Assembly (NCBI GenBank): GCA_963842885.1
Contig: CAWJIE010000011.1
Coordinates: forward strand, 1-10,691
DNA length: 10,691 nucleotides
Direction of reading: 5' to 3'
Source of the DNA: an uncultured Nitrososphaerota archaeon
GTDB lineage: Archaea > Thermoproteota > Nitrososphaeria > Conexivisphaerales > DTJL01
Numbering within the stretch: position 1 is the first letter of the stretch; every line of letters starts with the position of its first letter. Below are positions 68 to 10,565 of this stretch, in pieces. The translations under genes were made by a program, and so were the position numbers. Under the pieces are notes generated by a model. It was not told the DNA's origin, made no database searches, and saw only the letters and a program-made list of their open reading frames with translations.

Positions 68-2482
68 ATGCGAGTCAACAAGGTCCACTTATCGGGTGTT
101 CTCCGTCAGGTCGGATGGGACCTGACGGCCAGCTTCGCTCTTCTCCTTGTCTACTGGCTGGCTTCTGGATACCGGCCGATGCAGTTCCCCTTCACCCTGA
201 TTCAGGCTACCGCTGGCGCGGCCTTGGTCCTCGTTGTGTCAGGTCATACTCTGCGAGTGGCTCTCTTTGGTCGGACCCGCTTCCGTTCGTCCTCGCTTGG
301 GGGAAAGGTCACTCTGGATGTCCTCCTCAGTCTGCTGGTGTTCGCCGTCGTGTCCGTCGGGCTCTCCGTCACCTATCTCCTCGACGGGTTCAACGTCATG
401 ATGGTTCTAGGGTCGCTCACGATATTGTCGATAATAGTTGCCGTGGCGAGGAGAGAACCCTGCGGCGACCTCCGCCTCGTCAAGAACAGCCTGAGTGTCC
501 TGCCCGTCACCATCGTTGCAGCATCCGGCCTGATCATCGCCCTTCTGTTCAGGTGGGCGTTTTCGTGGCCCTCTATGCCTGGCTGGGACGTTAACTACCA
601 TCTGGCCGTCTCCAACCTGATCGTCGCTCATGACGGCATGGCTGACATCTTTCCAATCGTCAACGGGCACTTGGCTTACCCCCACGTCTTCCACGTCTTG
701 GTCGCGTCCTTCTCCAATATGGCGGGGATTTCTCCGTACGACGTCTTCTGGCTGGCACCCTTCCTTTCCATCCCCCTCTACGGCGTGCTCGTCTACTCCC
801 TTTCCTCAGCCCTGACCAAGAGCAGGACCCAATCCGTCGTGGCAGGGGTGCTGGCTGTTGCGATAAGCGGCGGGGACGCGCTTCTAGGGCCGGAGTACTT
901 CTTCACTTCCACGGCTTTCATTCTGCTATTCATGCTGACTCTTCTGGTGCTCGTGAAGTCCCCTCTTGAAGGGCTCCCTCATCTTGCTGTCGTTGGCTCT
1001 GCCCTGGCCCTCTGCTATCTTGTGTACTACTTTCCATTCTTCCTCTCTCTGCCAGTTCTCGCCCTCTTCCTCATGTTGCGCTACCCCGATTCCTTCCTTT
1101 CGCTGCACCGCCGTGTTGTCCTCACAGTGCTTCTCGCGGTCACGGTTCTTTCATCCTACTTACTGACCACAGCACTGAGCTTTGAGGTCGAGCCTCTCGC
1201 TGAGAAGGCCGCAATCCTGGGACTGACTTACCCGCCCGTGCTTTGGCTTCTTTCTCTCGTCGGCGGCTTGGTTGTCGTCAGGCAGTTCCTTAAGGACCGC
1301 ACCGGAGGCTTCATCTCCCTGGGCATGGCGGCGACATCGGTCACCCTCATCGCGGTCTGCTTCCTTCCCTTCAATACCTCGACCAGGTCGGAGCTCCTCC
1401 TGAGACCTCTCATCGCAATAGTCTCCTCCTTCATCGTCGTGTTCCTCTCCGCGGTTGTTGCGGGCGGGGCGAGGGCGGTCAAAGGAGGCTCGCCTCTGAA
1501 GTCGGTCGGAAGGATACCTGGAGTGCTCCTGGCCGTCTTCCTTGTGGCCTCGGTCGCCCTTGTGGCCCAGCCGTACCTTAGCTATGCCAGCCAGGTACCG
1601 AGCCTGTCCAACATCTCTGCCGACGAGTATGCAGCCGGCCAGTGGCTCTCGCAGAATACGCCCGCGAACGGATACATACTTACGGACCCGTCGACGGGGT
1701 ACGTCCTTCGCGGGCTGACCCTGCGCAACGCCTCCAACTCATTCATTTTCGGAGACTACGTAGGCCCATATGGAGGGTACAACCTGACTTCGACGATCTT
1801 CGGCTTCTTCAGCGAGCTAGACTTGACCAGAGTCGCCGGCTATCTCGAGCAGCTCCCGCAGACGCCCGCCTTCATCGTCATCACGACCCGGACCGCTTCA
1901 TGGGTCCTCTCAGGTGTGAACTCCTCTTTTGGGGCGCCGACCGGGCTCGCCCTCACCTCTTTCAGTGGGTCGGAGAAGTTCTCTCTCCCTCTATTCTCGC
2001 TGGCGGCCTCCTGGGACACGGTCAAGGTATATCGGCACACCAACGCCCAGCTTGTTACAGCCTGGAACGCGACGTCCTCGGAGAACGGCTTCGACTCGTG
2101 GTACCTCGAAGGAGCCTACGGCAGCCACAGGCTGGACTATGCGGACGGCTCCCTTATGGAGACCGTCCAGGCAGGAGGTCAGGGAGATGCCCAGACTGGC
2201 GCGACATTCCTTCTCGGGAATCTGACGCAGGCTGAATACCTTTTCGTTCGGTACAGGATAGATTCGCCCGCGTACAGCTTGGAGCTGATGCTCTTCTACT
2301 CCGATGGCTCGCCCTTGGTGATCACCTTGAAGCAGTCCTCCGGGTGGCAGGACGCCGCGTTCGCCCTCTCGGGGTCCAAGGACAACCCGCTGGTCAGGGT
2401 GGCGCTCGTGGTGTGGACTCGCGACACCTCCGTCCACACCGTCGAAGTGAACAGGTTCGCCGTGTTCAGCGTCGTCCCCTGA
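68..2482 (+). CDS. Multi-pass membrane glycosyltransferase of the GT-C superfamily (AglB/STT3-like architecture, no WWDYG) with a C-terminal beta-rich putative carbohydrate-binding domain, 804 aa
   Basis: About 500 aa of successive hydrophobic helices. External-loop motifs GWDVNYH (581-601) and YPHVFH (677-694) resemble the D-x-x-Y-H and Y-P motifs of GT-C enzymes. After the last helix, DEYAAGQWLSQNTPANGYILTDPSTGY (1622-1702) matches the STT3-type 'W-L-x-x-N-T-P' core opening. Neighbours are glycosyltransferases. Confidence 0.8.
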   Translation: MRVNKVHLSGVLRQVGWDLTASFALLLVYWLASGYRPMQFPFTLIQATAGAALVLVVSGHTLRVALFGRTRFRSSSLGGKVTLDVLLSLLVFAVVSVGLSVTYLLDGFNVMMVLGSLTILSIIVAVARREPCGDLRLVKNSLSVLPVTIVAASGLIIALLFRWAFSWPSMPGWDVNYHLAVSNLIVAHDGMADIFPIVNGHLAYPHVFHVLVASFSNMAGISPYDVFWLAPFLSIPLYGVLVYSLSSALTKSRTQSVVAGVLAVAISGGDALLGPEYFFTSTAFILLFMLTLLVLVKSPLEGLPHLAVVGSALALCYLVYYFPFFLSLPVLALFLMLRYPDSFLSLHRRVVLTVLLAVTVLSSYLLTTALSFEVEPLAEKAAILGLTYPPVLWLLSLVGGLVVVRQFLKDRTGGFISLGMAATSVTLIAVCFLPFNTSTRSELLLRPLIAIVSSFIVVFLSAVVAGGARAVKGGSPLKSVGRIPGVLLAVFLVASVALVAQPYLSYASQVPSLSNISADEYAAGQWLSQNTPANGYILTDPSTGYVLRGLTLRNASNSFIFGDYVGPYGGYNLTSTIFGFFSELDLTRVAGYLEQLPQTPAFIVITTRTASWVLSGVNSSFGAPTGLALTSFSGSEKFSLPLFSLAASWDTVKVYRHTNAQLVTAWNATSSENGFDSWYLEGAYGSHRLDYADGSLMETVQAGGQGDAQTGATFLLGNLTQAEYLFVRYRIDSPAYSLELMLFYSDGSPLVITLKQSSGWQDAAFALSGSKDNPLVRVALVVWTRDTSVHTVEVNRFAVFSVVP

Positions 2483-2577: not shown

Positions 2578-2741
2578 TCTGGACGCTCCCGATGGTGTTA
2601 GGTAGCGAATGCTATTCGATTCATCAAATAGTCGCAGGCGCTCCTGCCCATGTTTCCATCGGGCAGGCTTCGTGACCTCATGGGGGTCGTGGTTGCGTGC
2701 TGAGCGTGGCGTCGGTGCCCTTGTCTAGGTGGGTCTCCTCC

Positions 2742-5306
2742 ATGAGTCACTTGGGCCGTCAGGTTTTGCGTGGCGCCGTCCTCGCCCTGTTAGTCTACGT
2801 CATGGTTCTGAGCGCTGTCGCCCCCTCCATTACGACGGCCCACGCTGGGTCTCTCACTTTGTTCAGCATGACCCTCCTCGTCCCCACTAACGACCCGGTG
2901 ATGATTTCATACGCCGCGGTCATCGCCAACTCCTTTCAGAGCGTGGGCATAAACGCCCAGATTCACTACGTCTCCTTCTCTAAGCTGTTCAGCCAGGTGT
3001 TCTCCGCCCAAGGAGGCTTCGACGCGGCACTCATGGGGTGGTCCGCATCCACCTCCTCCTCCGACTCCATCTTCGGGAACATCCTCGGCAACCAAGCCAC
3101 CGAAACCCCCAACGGCACCAACTACTACCCCTACAACAGCAGCGCCGTGAACACGCTCATCGCCCAGGCCCTGCAGACCAGCGACAGGGCTTCCCAGGAC
3201 TCTTACATCTGGCAGATTCAGCCCATCCTCCAGGGCGACTCGCCCATGGCAGTCATTTACTACACCGAGAGCGCCGTGGCTAGAAGCCCCTCGATCTTGG
3301 AATACGGCCAGCAGAACGCCTTCAGCTCGAACTCCTTCCCGGACATTCAGCACCTGAGCGGCCTGACCACCCTTAACCTAGCGATGTCGTCGGCCATCTT
3401 TCCGGGAGGAAGCTTCAACCCGCTGACAGCGTTGGCGCACCAGACCAGCACCAACCTCGTCATGCAGCCCCTCTTCTCCCCCCTGCAGGAATGGGACCCA
3501 GTGGCCAACCAGTTCTACCTCGCCTTGGCCACCAGCGTGAACGAGTCGCTGGACGGCCTCCACTGGACCATCAGTTTTGGGAGCAACACATGGGCGGACG
3601 GGGTGAACGTGACCTCCGACGACTTCGTGTTCACCCTGGAGTCCGTCTTCAACCCGCAGTCCGGGAGCACCCTCTTCAACATGAAGGAGCAACTGGGTAA
3701 CGTCGGCAACTTCGTCTACTTGAATGGTACAACGATGACGCTCAACGAGTCGGGCGGAGCCGCTGTCGTCCCGTTCAGCGTCACGGCCGTCAGCCCCACT
3801 TCGTTTAGGGTGGACCTCACCAATCCGTACGGTTTCTTCAACTCCACATACGCCACGATGAGCCCCATCCCGAAGCACTACTTCGAGCAATTCAACATCA
3901 CCACGTGGGCTACCCTTCCGTACAGCGTCGCGAGCGGCATCTACCACTACACGTGGAACTCCACTAAATACGGTGGAAGCGGCTCGGCTTTCGCCACCGG
4001 ACCGTGGGGGAATGGTCCGTATTCCATGACCTCCGTCAATGCCACCGCGAACCTGTTCAAGGAGAGCGCTAGAGCGACCTACTGGAATTCGACGGGCCTC
4101 CACAACGTCGGCCAGTTCACGGTCACGAACTACAGCGTCCAGTTCGTGAGCGGCGTCGGTTCCGCCATCTCGGCGTATTCAGCGGGGAGTGTAAACGTCC
4201 TCGACCCCGGTTTCGGCCTGTCGCCCTTCGTCGCCTCCCTTCAGCAGCTGGGGGCGAACGTCCTTCAGTACTACGACGGCAGCTACCAGGAGCTCGGGTT
4301 CGACATGCTCAGCACCATATGGGGCACCGGGACCGCTACGCCACTGGGCCTGAGCAATTCGTCGCAGGCGTCAGCTGCGGCCCAAGACGTCAGGCGGGCA
4401 TTCAGCTACCTTATACCCAGACAGCAGATAATCGATCAGTTCCTGGGAGGTGCTGGCCTTGCGGGCATCACTCCATGGGGTCCGGCCTTCGGGTCCTCCT
4501 TCGACACAGCCCTCAGAGCGGATGGCTATGACACCTTGATGGCGAAGTCATTCCTTGCGGCGGCTGGATACAGCACGGGCGTTGATCCATACCTGAGCAC
4601 CTTCGAACCGCTGCGGTACTCGGGTGCCACAGGGTCGCTTCGGGTCCTGAGCTCTCCCGCCGTCCCAACGACTATCTCGGTCAATGGCACCCCTAGTGAT
4701 GACTGGGGGATAAACTGGCCACCGCTTCAGCCCGGCTATTATAGCCTGGGCTTCACCGACGTTCCGCAGTTCACCAGCCCTCAGTTCTACAACATCACGA
4801 TATATCCGTCCGGCGGTTCTCCCATAGGTCCTGTGTTGATTCCCGTCGGTTCGCCCGTCCCCGTGTATCCGGACGCGACCACATTCGTGACTCTTAGCTT
4901 CCAAGCCGAGGGGTTCCTCAGAGTCATTACGGACCCCGCCGTCCCCGGGCTGATATATATCGACGGCGCCCCGAAGGAACCTTGGGGGCTGTGGGTGTCT
5001 CTGCCGCCCGGCTCGTACGACGTCTCCTTCGGCGACTTGAACGGAATGACCACGCCCACATCGGTGCTTGCCACGGTCACGGCGAATCAGCTAACGTTGG
5101 TGACGGGCAACTACGGGAATGGAACAACCACTGTCCAGACGGCTCTCGCGCCGTCCTACTCGCCGCTCATAATTCAGCTCGTGGGTTCGCAGTCGTCCTA
5201 CGTGGGGCCTCTGGAGGTGCTCCTCTTTGTATCCGCTGGGCTCATGGCATTCTGGATGGGGCGGAAGCAGGTTCTAGCGGGGCTGTCGCGCCTGGCCAAG
5301 GGCTAG
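2742..5306 (+). CDS. Family-5 (DppA/OppA-like) ABC-type solute-binding protein, apparently circularly permuted, with signal peptide, two PEGA-like repeats and a C-terminal TM anchor (alternative start GTG 2697)
   Basis: Signal peptide MSHLGRQVLRGAVLALLVYVMVLSAVAPSITTAHA with an A-x-A cleavage site. SBP-5 blocks are present: LATSVNESLDGLHWTI..TWADGVNVTSDDFVFT, GNGPY, DVRRAFSYLIPRQQIID, YDTLMAKSFLAAAGY, FDAALMGW, YNSSAVNTLIAQA. The C-terminus is hydrophobic LEVLLFVSAGLMAFWMG followed by a basic tail. Confidence 0.88.
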   Translation: MSHLGRQVLRGAVLALLVYVMVLSAVAPSITTAHAGSLTLFSMTLLVPTNDPVMISYAAVIANSFQSVGINAQIHYVSFSKLFSQVFSAQGGFDAALMGWSASTSSSDSIFGNILGNQATETPNGTNYYPYNSSAVNTLIAQALQTSDRASQDSYIWQIQPILQGDSPMAVIYYTESAVARSPSILEYGQQNAFSSNSFPDIQHLSGLTTLNLAMSSAIFPGGSFNPLTALAHQTSTNLVMQPLFSPLQEWDPVANQFYLALATSVNESLDGLHWTISFGSNTWADGVNVTSDDFVFTLESVFNPQSGSTLFNMKEQLGNVGNFVYLNGTTMTLNESGGAAVVPFSVTAVSPTSFRVDLTNPYGFFNSTYATMSPIPKHYFEQFNITTWATLPYSVASGIYHYTWNSTKYGGSGSAFATGPWGNGPYSMTSVNATANLFKESARATYWNSTGLHNVGQFTVTNYSVQFVSGVGSAISAYSAGSVNVLDPGFGLSPFVASLQQLGANVLQYYDGSYQELGFDMLSTIWGTGTATPLGLSNSSQASAAAQDVRRAFSYLIPRQQIIDQFLGGAGLAGITPWGPAFGSSFDTALRADGYDTLMAKSFLAAAGYSTGVDPYLSTFEPLRYSGATGSLRVLSSPAVPTTISVNGTPSDDWGINWPPLQPGYYSLGFTDVPQFTSPQFYNITIYPSGGSPIGPVLIPVGSPVPVYPDATTFVTLSFQAEGFLRVITDPAVPGLIYIDGAPKEPWGLWVSLPPGSYDVSFGDLNGMTTPTSVLATVTANQLTLVTGNYGNGTTTVQTALAPSYSPLIIQLVGSQSSYVGPLEVLLFVSAGLMAFWMGRKQVLAGLSRLAKG
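4632..5114 (+). repeat. Two tandem PEGA-like beta-sandwich repeats within the SBP (protein-level repeat; units start at 4632 and 4911)
   Basis: GSLRVLSSPAVPTTISVNGTPSDDWGINWPPLQPGYYSLGFTDVPQFTSP aligns with GFLRVITDPAVPGLIYIDGAPKEPWGLWVSLPPGSYDVSFGDLNGMTTP. Both follow the PEGA pattern G-x-L-x-V-x-S/T-x-P...I-x-V/I-N/D-G...L-x-P-G-x-Y. Confidence 0.75.
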
Positions 5307-5310
5307 TGGT

Positions 5311-6450
5311 TTGAGGGTCCTGATGCTGACGGACTATTACTACCCTCATGTAGGTGGCGGTGTGGAGAAGGCGGTGACCGAGATTTCTAGGGCCCTTTTG
5401 AGGCGGGGGACAAAGGTGGGCGTCTTCACCCTTGATACGGAAGGTCACAGCTCCCACGAGATAGTCGACGGAGTCGAGGTGTTCAGGTCCAGAGCGCGCG
5501 ACTTGACCCCTATCCTGGGGCTCCAGAGCTCTGCGTCACTGAGGGCCTTGACAGACTTGCTCGGCGCGGTGGACGGATTTAACCCCGATGTTCTTCATGC
5601 CAACAACCTCTTCTTCACCACCTCGGCCCTATCGGTCCTCGCCAAGAAGCTGCACCGCCTCCCTCTCGTTGTCACCATGCATTTGGGCTCGATAGACGAC
5701 GTCGGAGGCCTAACGGGTTCCCTCGCTGCAACATATGAGAGAACCATAGCGAGACGGATACTCGAGAACAGCAATCACGTCATCGCAGTGAGCAGGGCCG
5801 TGTCCGACCATGCCAGCGCATTGGGTGTCCCACGAAGCAAGCTCAGCGTTGTCCCCAACGGCGTGGACACCGACGTCTTCCGCCCAGACCCCTCACGCAA
5901 GAAGGGTAGCAAGAAAAGAATCCTCTCCGTAGGCCGGCTCGTGCCCAACAAAGGTATTCAAGTCCTCGTCAGGGCCGCGCCAGCTGTCCTCGCCGAGCAT
6001 GACGTGGAGTTCCTGGTCATCGGCAGAGGTCCCATGCTGGCGGAGCTGGAGTCGCTGGCGCGGAAGGAAGGAGTGCGCGAAGCTTTTTCGTTCCTGGGAC
6101 TTGTGCCTTCGGTCAGCGACATGCTGCAGACCTGCGACGTTTTCGTTCGCCCGTCCATGACCGAAGGGATGCCCCTGACGGTTCTCGAAGCCATGGCCTG
6201 TGGGGTTCCCGTGGTGGCCACTTCCGTCGCAGGGACATCGGAGATCGTGCACCAAGGCTCGACAGGGCTCCTGTGCCCGCCTGGTGATGCACATTCACTT
6301 GCACAGGCCATAAACGCCAGCTTGGATGACCCTCAGTTAGCCAAGCGCCTAGGTGAGAACGGAAGGGCCATGGTGGGGAAGGGCTATGACTGGGAAGGCG
6401 CCGCCAGAATGACCAGGGATGTCTACGAGTCGCTCGGGGGTGCCGGGTAG
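5311..6450 (+). CDS. Glycosyltransferase family 4 (GT-B fold, retaining), 379 aa, TTG start
   Basis: N-terminal MRVLMLTDYYYPHVGGGVE, VVPNGVD and VGRLVPNKG motifs, and the E-x7-E signature in DVFVRPSMTEGMPLTVLEAMACGVPVVAT. Starts 4 nt after the SBP stop. Confidence 0.95.
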   Translation: MRVLMLTDYYYPHVGGGVEKAVTEISRALLRRGTKVGVFTLDTEGHSSHEIVDGVEVFRSRARDLTPILGLQSSASLRALTDLLGAVDGFNPDVLHANNLFFTTSALSVLAKKLHRLPLVVTMHLGSIDDVGGLTGSLAATYERTIARRILENSNHVIAVSRAVSDHASALGVPRSKLSVVPNGVDTDVFRPDPSRKKGSKKRILSVGRLVPNKGIQVLVRAAPAVLAEHDVEFLVIGRGPMLAELESLARKEGVREAFSFLGLVPSVSDMLQTCDVFVRPSMTEGMPLTVLEAMACGVPVVATSVAGTSEIVHQGSTGLLCPPGDAHSLAQAINASLDDPQLAKRLGENGRAMVGKGYDWEGAARMTRDVYESLGGAG

Positions 6451-7759: not shown

Positions 7760-8437
7760 TTGTTGGTGAGCATCGTCATTCCAGCTCTGGATGAGGAGGA
7801 CGGTATCTCGCTGACTCTTGACCGGTTGCCCATCGACGAGCTGCGTCAGTCTGGCTACGATGTCGAGGTGGTCGTGGTAGACGGCAACTCCAGGGATAGA
7901 ACTAGGGAAGTGGCCCACAGGAACGGTGCTCGTGTCGTTCTTGAGACTAGGTCCGGCTATGGCAGAGCCTGTAAGACGGGATTCCAGGCGGCAACGGGCG
8001 AAGTCATTGTGACCGCCGACGCCGATGGTACCTATCCGGAACAAAGGATCCCCGGTCTTGTGGACTTGGTGGTCAAAGGCGGCTACGATTTCGTGACGAC
8101 CAGTAGGATGGGGCATGTCGACGACGGGGCGATGAGCGGGACAGTCAGATTCGGGAACCGCATCCTGTCGCGGACCGCTTCTCTCCTTTTCCCGATCAGA
8201 GTCGTCGATTCGCAATCTGGCATGTGGGCATTCAAGCGCAGCTTCGTCGACGCCCTCGGCGCCAAATCGAACGGGATGCCATTCTCCGAAGAGCTGAAGA
8301 TTAGGGCGAGCCTTAGGGGTAGGGTCGTCGAGGTCCCGATAGTATATAGGCGCCGGGTTGGCCATGGGAAGCTGCACGTCTTCAGGGACGGCCTCTCCAA
8401 TCTGCTGTACCTGTTCTACCTGAGGATGACCCTATGA
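7760..8437 (+). CDS. Glycosyltransferase family 2, dolichol/polyprenol-phosphate-sugar synthase-like (DPM1-like), 225 aa, TTG start
   Basis: SIVIPALDEE, VVVVDGNSRDRT, GYG, the DxD motif in TADADGTYP, and the DSQSGMWAF and EVPIVYRRRVG motifs are typical of DPM/DPG synthase-like GT2s. A purine-rich GGGAGAAGGA lies upstream. Confidence 0.93.
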   Translation: MLVSIVIPALDEEDGISLTLDRLPIDELRQSGYDVEVVVVDGNSRDRTREVAHRNGARVVLETRSGYGRACKTGFQAATGEVIVTADADGTYPEQRIPGLVDLVVKGGYDFVTTSRMGHVDDGAMSGTVRFGNRILSRTASLLFPIRVVDSQSGMWAFKRSFVDALGAKSNGMPFSEELKIRASLRGRVVEVPIVYRRRVGHGKLHVFRDGLSNLLYLFYLRMTL

Positions 8438-8460: not shown

Positions 8461-10565
8461 TTGGCGTCTCCGTCAAGGTCAAAGCTGGGTTCACGTCTTG
8501 GACAGCTTGCCCCAGCGCTTCTCCCAACAATGGCAGCATTCCTGATTACGTTCCTTCTCCAGTTACCATATCTTGTTCCCACTGGGTCAGACGTCGGTCA
8601 CTACTTGGCTCTAGCACGAACCTTCCCAGCGAACCTGACCTACTCGCCGATGATTCCACTTTTGATGTCGCCCTTCGCTCGATGGGTCTCTCTCGGTAGC
8701 TACATTCCCTTGAAGCTCTTCATAGCGATTGTCTTCAGTTTAATGGTCCTCTCTTTCTTCGTTCTAGTCAACGAGGCCAGTTCGGACGTCAGAGTCGCCT
8801 TCTTGGGCGCAGTCCTGACAGCGTTCAGTGGCCTTCAGCTTGAGTCGGTCGCCTGGGGCGCCTTGCCCCAGATCCTTGCGCTGGGATTTTCCTTCGCCTC
8901 GTTGAACTTCGCGATAAGGTGGACGAGGACGGACGACTTGCGAAATGCCGTGCTAGCAGGGGCCTTCCTCGGGCTCACGTTTCTAACGCATGACATCACT
9001 TCGGTCTTTGCCCTGGTTTCATGCCTTGCCTACGCGCTGATGGCAAGGCCTCGAACCATGTTCCGGGGTCTAGCCCTCGGAGGAGCAGTCTCAGCGCCGT
9101 GTGCCTTGGTCGGCGTCCTGGTCCTGGCCCCGCAGAACATGGTAAGCGTTACTCCTCTGGTCGCGCATTTGTCCCCCGGCCTGGCCTACCTTATACTCGT
9201 GCGTATCGCCGGGTGGAGTGGCGTCGCTGACCTTGCTTCACTGGCGAGCCTCCTGTTCCTAATGCTCTTCTCTCTGGCGACGATTCTGCTGGGAGGCAGG
9301 TTGAAGCGGTCGCTCAGGCTTCTCCTTCCCAGCATCGCGCTGGGCTCGCTGGCTGTGGCATTCTTTACGCCGATTCAGTTCCCGGACAGGTGGAGCTACT
9401 TCCTCTTCTTCCCGGTGGCGCTCTCGGCTTGTTTATGCGGGACGCTTCTGGTACGGCGAAGCTGGTCCCAGTTGCTCGTAGTGGTTCTGGTCCTCATGAC
9501 CGTCATTGGCGGGGCGGCACACTTCTACTCTGCCGGGAACTTCTACGGCTCTGTAACGGCGACCGACCTTCAGGCCTTTGACTGCTCAAGGCTAACGGTC
9601 AGACGCAGGATGGGGTCATCATGTACACCTCGTCTTCTGTTGCACAATCCTGGTGGTTGGAAGGGGTGACTCTTATGCGGCCGTTCGCCGTTGGCGACAC
9701 GCAATGGTTCCTTCTGAAGGACGAGAGGGCAAGCTCTATTGCGGGGATACTGGGAGTGAGTGGAACCTACTTCGTCGACGGTGGAGACGTCAAAGTCGTC
9801 GAATCCTACCCCTATGCAGCCAACCACGCGCCTGGCATATTCGTCTATGATGGGATTAACTTCTTCGAAGCGTTTTCCTACAACGATGACGGTCTCAATC
9901 TCATGTTCTCGCCTCCTGACAACGCATCTCTGGTTTGGAACGAATCTCTGTACTATGCGCCTTCCAAGGGAGCAATAGTTTGGAATTCATCGGCGGGGGT
10001 GATTACCGGAACGGCAAGCTTCTCATGGGATAGGGTCGTGGCTACGCGAACTGTGCGCATCGGGGATGGCCTTCCCGTCGCTGTTACATACACTCTGATC
10101 TTCAACAACTCCGTTCCCGTCAGCGTGAAGGCGAAGTTCCCGCAGCCGGACTACACAACCTACACCAACCTGCAATCTCTCGGTCCTGGAGTACTTGGTT
10201 TCAAGTCGGTCAACAGGGCCGGAGACGTTGTGGGGGACGCGCTGAGCTATTCCGTTGAAGGCGCCACCCAAGTGGGCCAAGCTGTCATGACACCCACAAG
10301 CTGGGGGACTCAGCAGATCGAATTAGACTTCAGACCTGACCCTGGCGTCACCACCGTGACCCTGAATTTCCAGTCATCTGTCGATGGCTATACCATCCAC
10401 GCTCCCACACTTGTCAATACAGACTTGATGCTGGCTGCCAACGGGGTCAAATACGTGGTCCTCGACGATTGGGCTTCGAACACGATACAGCGGCTGCGTG
10501 ACCCTGACTTCGAACTCAAAGCTCAGTTCGGGGACGTGCTCATATACGAATTCGTTGGTGGCTAG
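8461..10565 (+). CDS. Second GT-C-type multi-pass membrane protein with an AglB/STT3-like soluble domain, ~701 aa once a 1-nt deletion at ~9584 is repaired (track ORFs 8461..9669 and 9621..10565 are one gene)
   Basis: GSDVGHY (8584-8604) and YSP loop motifs are followed by many TM helices. Adding one G to GAC-TG-CTC gives DLQAFD-W-LKANGQTQDGVIMYTSSS, which joins the 9621 frame and parallels DEYAAGQWLSQNTPANGYILT in ORF 68..2482. The C-terminus MLAANGVKYVVLD...FELKAQFGDVLIYEF is STT3-core-like. The start codon is uncertain. Confidence 0.82.

Follow-up and report, generated by a model that had tools for sequence, protein, structure and literature searches.

The termini of canonical cluster C solute-binding proteins (SBPs) lie close together in domain I, and lobe 2 is formed by one contiguous stretch of the chain (PMC10924461). 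In Mycobacterium tuberculosis, DppA rests on DppBCD via its hinge and N-lobe, the C-lobe swings upon ligand binding, and the cluster C protein is tethered along DppB by its N-terminus (PMC10954201). In this study, I analyzed a family-5 (cluster C) SBP gene, whose product is called P0001, in a 10,691-base stretch of DNA (the window), which is the complete contig C11 of the archaeal genome G000 (2.03 Mb, 87% complete). The nearest public relatives of the window proteins are labelled Conexivisphaerales, Nitrososphaerota or 'Thaumarchaeota'. Every fold block of the canonical proteins AppA of Bacillus subtilis (1xoc), OppA of Salmonella typhimurium (1b05), and DppA of Escherichia coli (1dpp) is also found in P0001. 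In comparison with the canonical SBPs, however, the chain begins with its last third and the former termini are joined, and the tether would leave from lobe 2 rather than from lobe 1. As with the canonical Opp/Dpp/Nik-type SBPs, most genes of the permuted family lie next to genes for Opp-type permeases and ATPases.

A natural circular permutation of a binding protein of the ATP-binding cassette (ABC) type has also been described for TpMglB-2 (Tp0684) of Treponema pallidum, classified as 'Type Ic / Cluster Bc' (PMC4990184). As in TpMglB-2, the fold segments of P0001 are rotated and the rotation is conserved in a family of homologues. TpMglB-2 comes from organisms whose binding proteins are tethered, and the study that describes it proposes that the topology may be an anchoring adaptation (PMC4990184); this proposal parallels the C-terminal anchors of the proteins that share the block order of P0001 (type A, see below). 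In contrast, TpMglB-2 belongs to cluster B (type I sugar binders), has another cut site, is an N-terminally tethered lipoprotein, and has no sequence homology to P0001.

Two other groups resemble P0001 in layout or in gene neighbourhood. The crenarchaeal Opp-class SBPs of S. solfataricus and A. pernix are described as having a signal for signal peptidase I, a glycosylated linker, and a C-terminal transmembrane (TM) anchor (PMC3387779). P0001 likewise has a predicted N-terminal signal and a C-terminal TM segment; the likeness is one of layout. The mycobacterial LpqW, LpqZ, and FecB are SBP-like proteins without transporter genes, which are encoded among, or act with, membrane glycosyltransferases (PMC12802301, PMC3229680), as would fit the neighbourhood of the window copy. 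They differ in being bacterial lipoproteins, apparently non-permuted. LpqW has a family-5 fold. In the literature found, no natural permutation is described for PF00496 or cluster C; the search yielded only engineered permutations and the cluster B protein TpMglB-2. A natural circular permutation conserved over a large family is uncommon, and here it occurs in the well-studied OppA/DppA-type scaffold. It offers a natural test of the effects of chain topology on folding during secretion, on hinge mechanics, and on permease docking. It also marks a surface loop that tolerates new termini, which is useful for binding-protein biosensors, as these are often built by engineered permutation.

Chain order of the binding module

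The gene and the blocks of its binding module (about 575 aa, followed by a tail of about 200 aa) are located in the window as follows.

2697..5306, + strand: open reading frame (ORF) of the binding protein P0001, 869 aa when counted from GTG 2697
2742..2846, + strand: signal peptide with basic residues, a hydrophobic core, and A-H-A ahead of G51; cleavage predicted
2853..3356, + strand: block Z (aa 53-220), equivalent to the last third of canonical proteins and comprising the remainder of lobe 2 and the last domain-I segment; corresponds to Pfam profile 289-365, AppA 360-498, and canonical template 436-611
3336..3362, + strand: junction motif FPDIQHLSG (aa 214-222), the meeting point of the old C-terminus and the old N-terminus
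3360..3890, + strand: block X (aa 222-398), the canonical N-terminal strand and domain II; Pfam profile from 2, OppA 1b05 66-192 = aa 284-417, template 41 to about 205 in the second copy
3891..4577, + strand: block Y (aa 399-627), the second domain-I segment, the hinge, and the first third of lobe 2, terminating in the LAAAGY helix; Pfam profile to 284, AppA 281-345 = aa 563-626, template up to 427

ATG 2742 (M16) is a more likely start codon than GTG 2697. The first-pass annotation, made from the sequence alone, had proposed that this gene encodes a circularly permuted family-5 protein with block boundaries at 2859, 3363, and 4571. The boundaries hold and correspond to aa 55 (LFSMTLL...), aa 223, and Y625, respectively, and three kinds of search (Pfam, PDB, and profile-profile) agree on the permutation. 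As had been expected of a permuted chain, the Pfam profile SBP_bac_5 (PF00496) matched P0001 (128.9 bits; cut-off, 32.4) in two stretches of swapped order, profile 289-365 followed by 2-284. The best match covers aa 273-631 with profile positions 2-284 of 368. The N-terminal piece alone (window 2847-3362) matched profile positions 289-365 of 368 with aa 57-134 (E 2.9e-8), although its 33.7 bits are only narrowly over the same cut-off. The N-terminal block matches the same family and not another fold. No homology to MglB or cluster B was found; every Pfam and PDB match belongs to family 5 or cluster C.

The same block swap was seen when P0001 was aligned by phmmer with AppA (1xoc): query residues 56-199 correspond to chain residues 360-498, 250-325 to 44-122, and 563-626 to 281-345. 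P0001 matched 32 family-5 sequences in the PDB. The N block alone matched seven PDB sequences, and in every case the matched chain positions fell within 344-516. Searches with single sequences were less sensitive within the genome itself: in a BLASTP comparison with the genome's own canonical SBP, aa 263-627 were aligned (E 8e-5) and the N block was not, and a profile of the N block gave no significant match to this single sequence (E 0.45).

A profile-profile comparison was performed with aa 52-630 as the query, from the 36-sequence alignment A1, and with 12 canonical-order relatives as the template. The single canonical template gave two matches in swapped order (E 9.7e-66 and 8.4e-29) rather than one colinear alignment. 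When the template was doubled in tandem, one colinear match resulted (query columns 2-576 of 579, 525 columns, E 5.7e-89), in which the domain I, II, and III segments are each present once. Residue aa 53 corresponds to template residue 436 and aa 627 to template residue 427, leaving only an 8-residue loop (428-435) unused. Thus the chain was opened in the loop after the AGY helix, as had been claimed: the module starts at aa 53 and ends with ...AAGY-ST at aa 627. At the junction, aa 213-220 correspond to template residues 604-611 and aa 222 to residue 41 of the next template copy. By this mapping, the canonical C-terminal tail and the N-terminal leader have been deleted and the old ends fused without a linker. 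The linker of about 25 aa proposed earlier is in fact the canonical C-terminal strand region. No stretch of the alignment is better conserved than the junction motif; P215, D216, Q218, H219, S221, and G222 are invariant in all six type-A sequences compared, and H219 is nearly invariant among the 36 aligned sequences.

It was therefore concluded that, at the level of profile alignments, P0001 is a family-5 (cluster C) binding module with the chain order Z-X-Y in place of X-Y-Z. With this segment order, it is a topological variant, a non-canonical member of SBP_bac_5. I consider it probable that P0001 encodes a genuine, complete, and naturally circularly permuted cluster C module whose preserved fold is read from sequence profiles. 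Two parts of this reading, that both new termini lie on lobe 2 (domain III) and that the fold closes as in the canonical proteins, come from sequence-to-structure mapping only, which weighs against it. For annotation, the case is a warning that two swapped PF00496 matches in one ORF can represent a whole protein.

The swapped blocks might instead be the leftover of a tandem duplication, namely two partial and non-complementary SBP fragments in a decaying, non-functional gene. Tandem doubles do occur in the wider family (P0051 and P0056), and the window copy is unusually divergent. However, together the blocks cover the canonical profile once and only once (template 436-611 first, 41-427 second), without overlap and with only 8 residues unused, the ORF at 2697-5306 is intact, the ratio of nonsynonymous to synonymous substitution rates (dN/dS; rough values, see below) is 0.21-0.37, and the arrangement is conserved across archaeal classes down to 25-30% identity. 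For these reasons, a duplication remnant is very improbable and was rejected.

Distribution, operon context, and anchoring of the permuted family

Is this arrangement common in archaea? The window protein is not unique but is a member of a large, mainly archaeal family of rotated proteins, and homologues of the same block order, which the first-pass annotation had suggested looking for, were found in archaeal genomes. In G000 itself, contig C2 carries another permuted gene and contig C3 a single canonical one. Among 36 database proteins found at E<=1e-3, 33 are colinear with P0001 over at least 94% of aa 50-630, with 30-48% identity. When 41 related genomes were scanned with PF00496, the order '288-365 then 2-284' was found in eight of the nine genomes of the window's own taxonomic family and was absent from the remaining 32. 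Of 201 genomes sampled evenly across the phylum, 14 contain a junction-spanning match.

In species-representative genomes, 59 loci are colinear with P0001. They are labelled Conexivisphaerales, Nitrososphaerales/Nitrosopumilales, Bathyarchaeia, Methanomethylicia, Marsarchaeota, and Asgard, together with three 'proteobacterium' metagenome-assembled genomes (MAGs); no locus among the 59 is from Sulfolobales or Desulfurococcales. In seven distant members examined with Pfam, the main match begins at about aa 262-300 and stops at about profile position 280-286, and the profile 288-36x block was reported near aa 60-145 in three of the seven.

Against 1.84 billion representative sequences, the junction-region profile A2 gave 3617 matches at E<=1e-3, of which 261 reached E<=1e-10. 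The junction profile also matched 59 PDB chains, none of which runs across the junction: Z always falls in the C-terminal third and X at the N-terminus. No solved structure represents the permuted order, since all 59 matched chains are canonical.

These distributions bear on whether pieces of one or two genes were misjoined near 3290-3360 in the assembly, as can be asked of a window that is a short (10.7 kb) MAG contig. However, the same block order occurs in the second gene of G000, in the family genomes mentioned above, and in the 59 loci elsewhere, and 84 of the 150 listed clusters (see below) begin with Z-X, with the junction as the best-conserved stretch. An assembly chimera, which had been named beforehand as a possible refutation, has a negligible chance of explaining so many colinear homologues from independent assemblies, and was rejected.

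Among the labels, the three 'proteobacterium' MAG loci (L073, L074, and L076) are type-A relatives with 25-28% identity on contigs of 277-432 kb. Their genomes are bacterial, as shown by their 7-13 sigma-70 genes. Opp-type genes lie about 2 kb away, and two of the three ORFs are split. An Asgard-labelled type-A relative (L068:2168-4615) has Prok-RING_1 and DZR (zinc-ribbon) matches in the C-terminal 100 aa or so behind the module.

Both Opp/Dpp-type permease and ATPase genes adjoin the SBP gene in 40 of the 59 loci, either upstream on the same strand or divergently. Four further loci have one kind only and are cut by a contig end, and 15 have neither, three of these with less than 700 bases of upstream sequence. 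Four loci of the window's own family (L006, L016, L017, and L019), including that on contig C2 of G000, have the permease/ATPase operon context. Since permease and ATPase genes normally adjoin, the family is the binding subunit that delivers a substrate to an ABC importer. The flanking genes of the family loci gave no consistent hint to the substrate.

Two conserved genes of about 321 and 187 aa accompany type-A genes (L006:7157-8122(-) and L006:6590-7153(-); also L016-L021 and others). At E<=1e-5, the 321-aa companion is present in 18 and the 187-aa companion in 16 of the 59 loci, and neither has a Pfam match. For the 321-aa companion, the Atlas gives the lead AF_2048_N with a score of 0.94.

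In P0001, hydrophobic segments are found at aa 19-49 and aa 836-854, and 16 N-X-S/T sequons are present in the protein. The tail behind the module carries the following elements.

4626..4781, + strand: stalk repeat 1 (aa 644-695), resembling PEGA on visual inspection only
4905..5057, + strand: stalk repeat 2 (aa 737-787), which matches repeat 1
5202..5258, + strand: C-terminal transmembrane anchor (aa 836-854), a hydrophobic segment with basic residues after it

The two stalk repeats are 44% identical (E 2e-12). The stalk matched no Pfam family at E<=1, and the tail gave no match in the pairwise tests against the genome's own canonical SBP. A C-terminal TM-like segment was found in 92 of 101 complete type-A proteins, whose median tail is 188 aa; in the same sample, it was found in 16 of 17 type-C, both type-B, and three of 12 canonical-order proteins (types B and C are other rotations, described below). 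Among relatives, all four canonical proteins have an N-terminal hydrophobic segment only, while all six type-A and all five type-B proteins have an N-terminal signal and a C-terminal TM segment. The relation between C-terminal anchoring and permutation is a correlation. The sequences share ancestry, and no more than 12 canonical proteins entered the sample, which counts against linking the permutation with the anchor.

How might the tether be displaced? The first-pass annotation had proposed that the permutation attaches the stalk and the anchor to the other lobe. By alignment, the cut between AppA residues 345 and 360 lies inside lobe 2, while the canonical termini are in domain I; this much of the proposal stands as a mapping onto solved relatives only. 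From the position of the cut and from the geometry of M. tuberculosis DppABCD, the type-A tether would depart from the mobile, membrane-distal lobe. A cleavable signal peptide, as predicted from the sequence, would free the new N-terminus. The new C-terminus would run into the stalk of about 200 aa with its two repeated, presumably beta-rich units and then into the single C-terminal anchor. The binding module would thus hang from the mobile lobe, and lobe 1 and the hinge, which contact the permease in M. tuberculosis DppABCD, would be left free.

Other chain orders and order switching

To classify the orders, block hidden Markov models (HMMs) for Z, X, and Y were built from type A and applied to the 150 matches listed for A2. 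On the distant type-B proteins and on the long canonical proteins of relatives, these HMMs detected zero or one block each, and in seven of 193 proteins they detected none. Because distant type-B and long canonical proteins are missed in this way, the classification is valid only near type A. The clusters of the 150 listed were distributed as follows.

Z-X... (type A): 84 clusters
Z then Y, with X not detected: 7 clusters
Yc-Z-X-Yn-like (type C): 19 clusters
Y-Z-X (type B-like): 2 clusters
Tandem doubles: 2 clusters
Canonical: 13 clusters
Yn-Yc-Z, with X not detected: 2 clusters
Fragments or other: 21 clusters

Apart from the canonical order, no fewer than three rotated orders occur in the sample. 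In type C (e.g., P0073, P0078, P0099, and P0132), the chain is cut approximately at the hinge between domain I and lobe 2, and the entire lobe 2 comes first. The type-B rotation was found at L008:2522-5188, L009:1770-4430(-), L010:2046-4841(-), L011:1064-3514(-), and L012:2619-5546, in other taxonomic families within the window's order and class. In the type-B ORF (about 820-975 aa), Pfam profile positions 146 to about 350 come first and positions 16-141 follow about 240 aa further on. A CarboxypepD_reg/PEGA-like stalk and a C-terminal TM segment come next, and Opp-type permease genes lie directly downstream of the gene. Against the doubled canonical profile, type B gave one match (E 2.3e-33). 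Canonical-order family-5 proteins of 865-873 aa were also found in relatives (L013:2391-4997(-), L014, and L015); these have an N-terminal anchor and PKD domains ahead of the module, and no C-terminal TM segment.

An order tree was built with FastTree from concatenated blocks and rooted at the midpoint, using 125 of the 132 fully classified sequences; fragments, doubles, and seven sparse rows were left out. Parsimony on this tree requires at least six order changes. With support values of 0.96-0.998 at several nodes, canonical and type-B proteins fall within type A. One pair consists of P0072 (type A) and P0077 (canonical), which share 64-65% identity in both blocks although the order is swapped. 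Their clusters have 12 and 14 members, respectively, from independent assemblies. By the similarity of the blocks, this pair points to a very recent order switch.

Tandem double binding proteins may connect these orders. P0051 (1217 aa), P0056 (1524 aa), and P0220 (1533 aa, labelled Promethearchaeota) have the block order Yc-Z-X-Y-Z-X-Yn and similar ones. Any of the observed orders could be trimmed out of such a double, which would fit a model of duplication and trimming.

The window copy and its glycosyltransferase neighbourhood

The genes around the binding-protein gene in the window are as follows.

68..2482, + strand: upstream neighbour, an 804-aa polytopic membrane protein, which has some 13 hydrophobic segments followed by a soluble C-terminal part of about 300 aa; syntenic in the congener's genome (G001)
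5311..6450, + strand: GT4 glycosyltransferase, which starts 4 nt past the SBP stop codon
6473..7480, + strand: Gfo/Idh/MocA-type oxidoreductase
7760..8437, + strand: GT2 glycosyltransferase; also syntenic in G001
8461..10565, + strand: two overlapping frames, encoding a 402-aa polytopic protein (8461-9669) and a 314-aa soluble protein (9621-10565)

The window copy is a genus-level, fast-evolving paralogue that has departed from the transporter operon and lies in a glycosyltransferase cluster. What, then, does it do? There is about an even chance that it still acts at the surface as a ligand-binding receptor and supplies, with an altered ligand, the type-A-associated Opp-like transporter encoded on contig C2. 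For its three family-5 binding proteins, G000 possesses two Opp-type permease sets, which is in favour of this reading, as is the synteny of the window copy with its G001 orthologue. In comparison with this orthologue, the dN/dS values are 0.21 (470 codons, dS 1.40) and 0.37 (278 codons, dS 0.94), which are rough because dS values of 0.94-1.40 are near saturation. These ratios indicate purifying selection on the window copy. I favour the view of a functional receptor with changed specificity because of the atypical traits of the copy, the purifying selection, and the two permease sets for three binding proteins.

Besides the roughness of the dN/dS values, several observations weigh against a receptor function in transport. 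No transporter gene is present on the window contig, which is only 10.7 kb, and the neighbours of the window copy are shared by none of the 59 related loci. In a quick IQ-TREE analysis only, its branch length is 0.72, while the median is 0.16. It is the most deviant of the 36 aligned sequences, with differences at 28 of the 128 columns whose conservation reaches 85% or more. Among these is the family motif R69-R70-Q71, which is M-I-S in the window copy; this motif is presumably linked to ligand binding, an assumption taken over from DppA. In addition, the oppD-like ATPase gene of the C2 transporter (230586-231574; L006:13898-14572 region) is split over three frames. No transporter gene was found at the syntenic G001 locus either. 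The stalk of the window copy is shared, among 233 proteins compared, only with P0017, a fragment of the congener's orthologue.

It was also considered whether the window copy has been co-opted from transport to assist the neighbouring polytopic (GT-C-like) proteins and glycosyltransferases, either as their extracytoplasmic partner or as a scaffold that presents substrates. The SBP gene lies between the 804-aa polytopic gene and the closely following GT4 gene, and the oxidoreductase, the GT2 gene, and a second polytopic gene come next. This gene order of the glycan locus recurs in the congener (G001:C22) with 55-63% identity, where nearly all genes are split over frames, and the downstream gene, in the form found in the congener, matches PMT_2 weakly. 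The long branch, the loss of conserved family residues, and the stalk of its own would also suit a new role. There are precedents for such a role: the orphan SBP-like LpqZ and FecB interact with AftA and AftB (PMC12802301), and LpqW channels PIM4 into lipomannan synthesis (PMC3229680). However, SBP and glycan genes adjoin in this way in just two genomes, both from a single genus. In the quick tree, P0003 is the sister of the window copy, and the P0003 loci retain the ABC operon; in this sister lineage, the full operon lies upstream and, in L087, glycan genes lie downstream. From this gene order, the glycan neighbourhood may be inherited by position and not by function. Moreover, the GT-C assignment is below the threshold, and the upstream 804-aa protein has no Pfam match. 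Co-option is rather unlikely.

A broader proposal would join the order switching to this locus: archaeal family-5 proteins would switch order repeatedly and recently, the permutation would move the tether off the permease face, and the window copy would have been recruited to a surface-glycan locus in the manner of LpqW and LpqZ. As a whole, this proposal is doubtful. The receptor with changed specificity remains my preferred reading of the window copy, which also raises the question of module reuse outside transport.

Some details of the neighbouring genes were also noted. Searches of the window for Rfam families and for tRNAs gave no match. The 804-aa protein gave no Pfam match at E<=10 and no NCBIfam match; DUF6541 occurs in 56% of the members of its nearest ESM Atlas clusters, which are archaeal. 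The 804-aa protein has a weak local similarity (E 8.8e-6) to a 760-aa protein of the congener, which is encoded by a single ORF (L085:8306-10585) corresponding to the two overlapping frames at 8461..10565. The PMT_2 (GT-C) match of this 760-aa protein has an E-value of 1.6e-4 and 22.4 bits, below the cut-off of 26.1. In the window, the frame switches near 9555-9582, through a genuine frameshift or through an error in the assembly.

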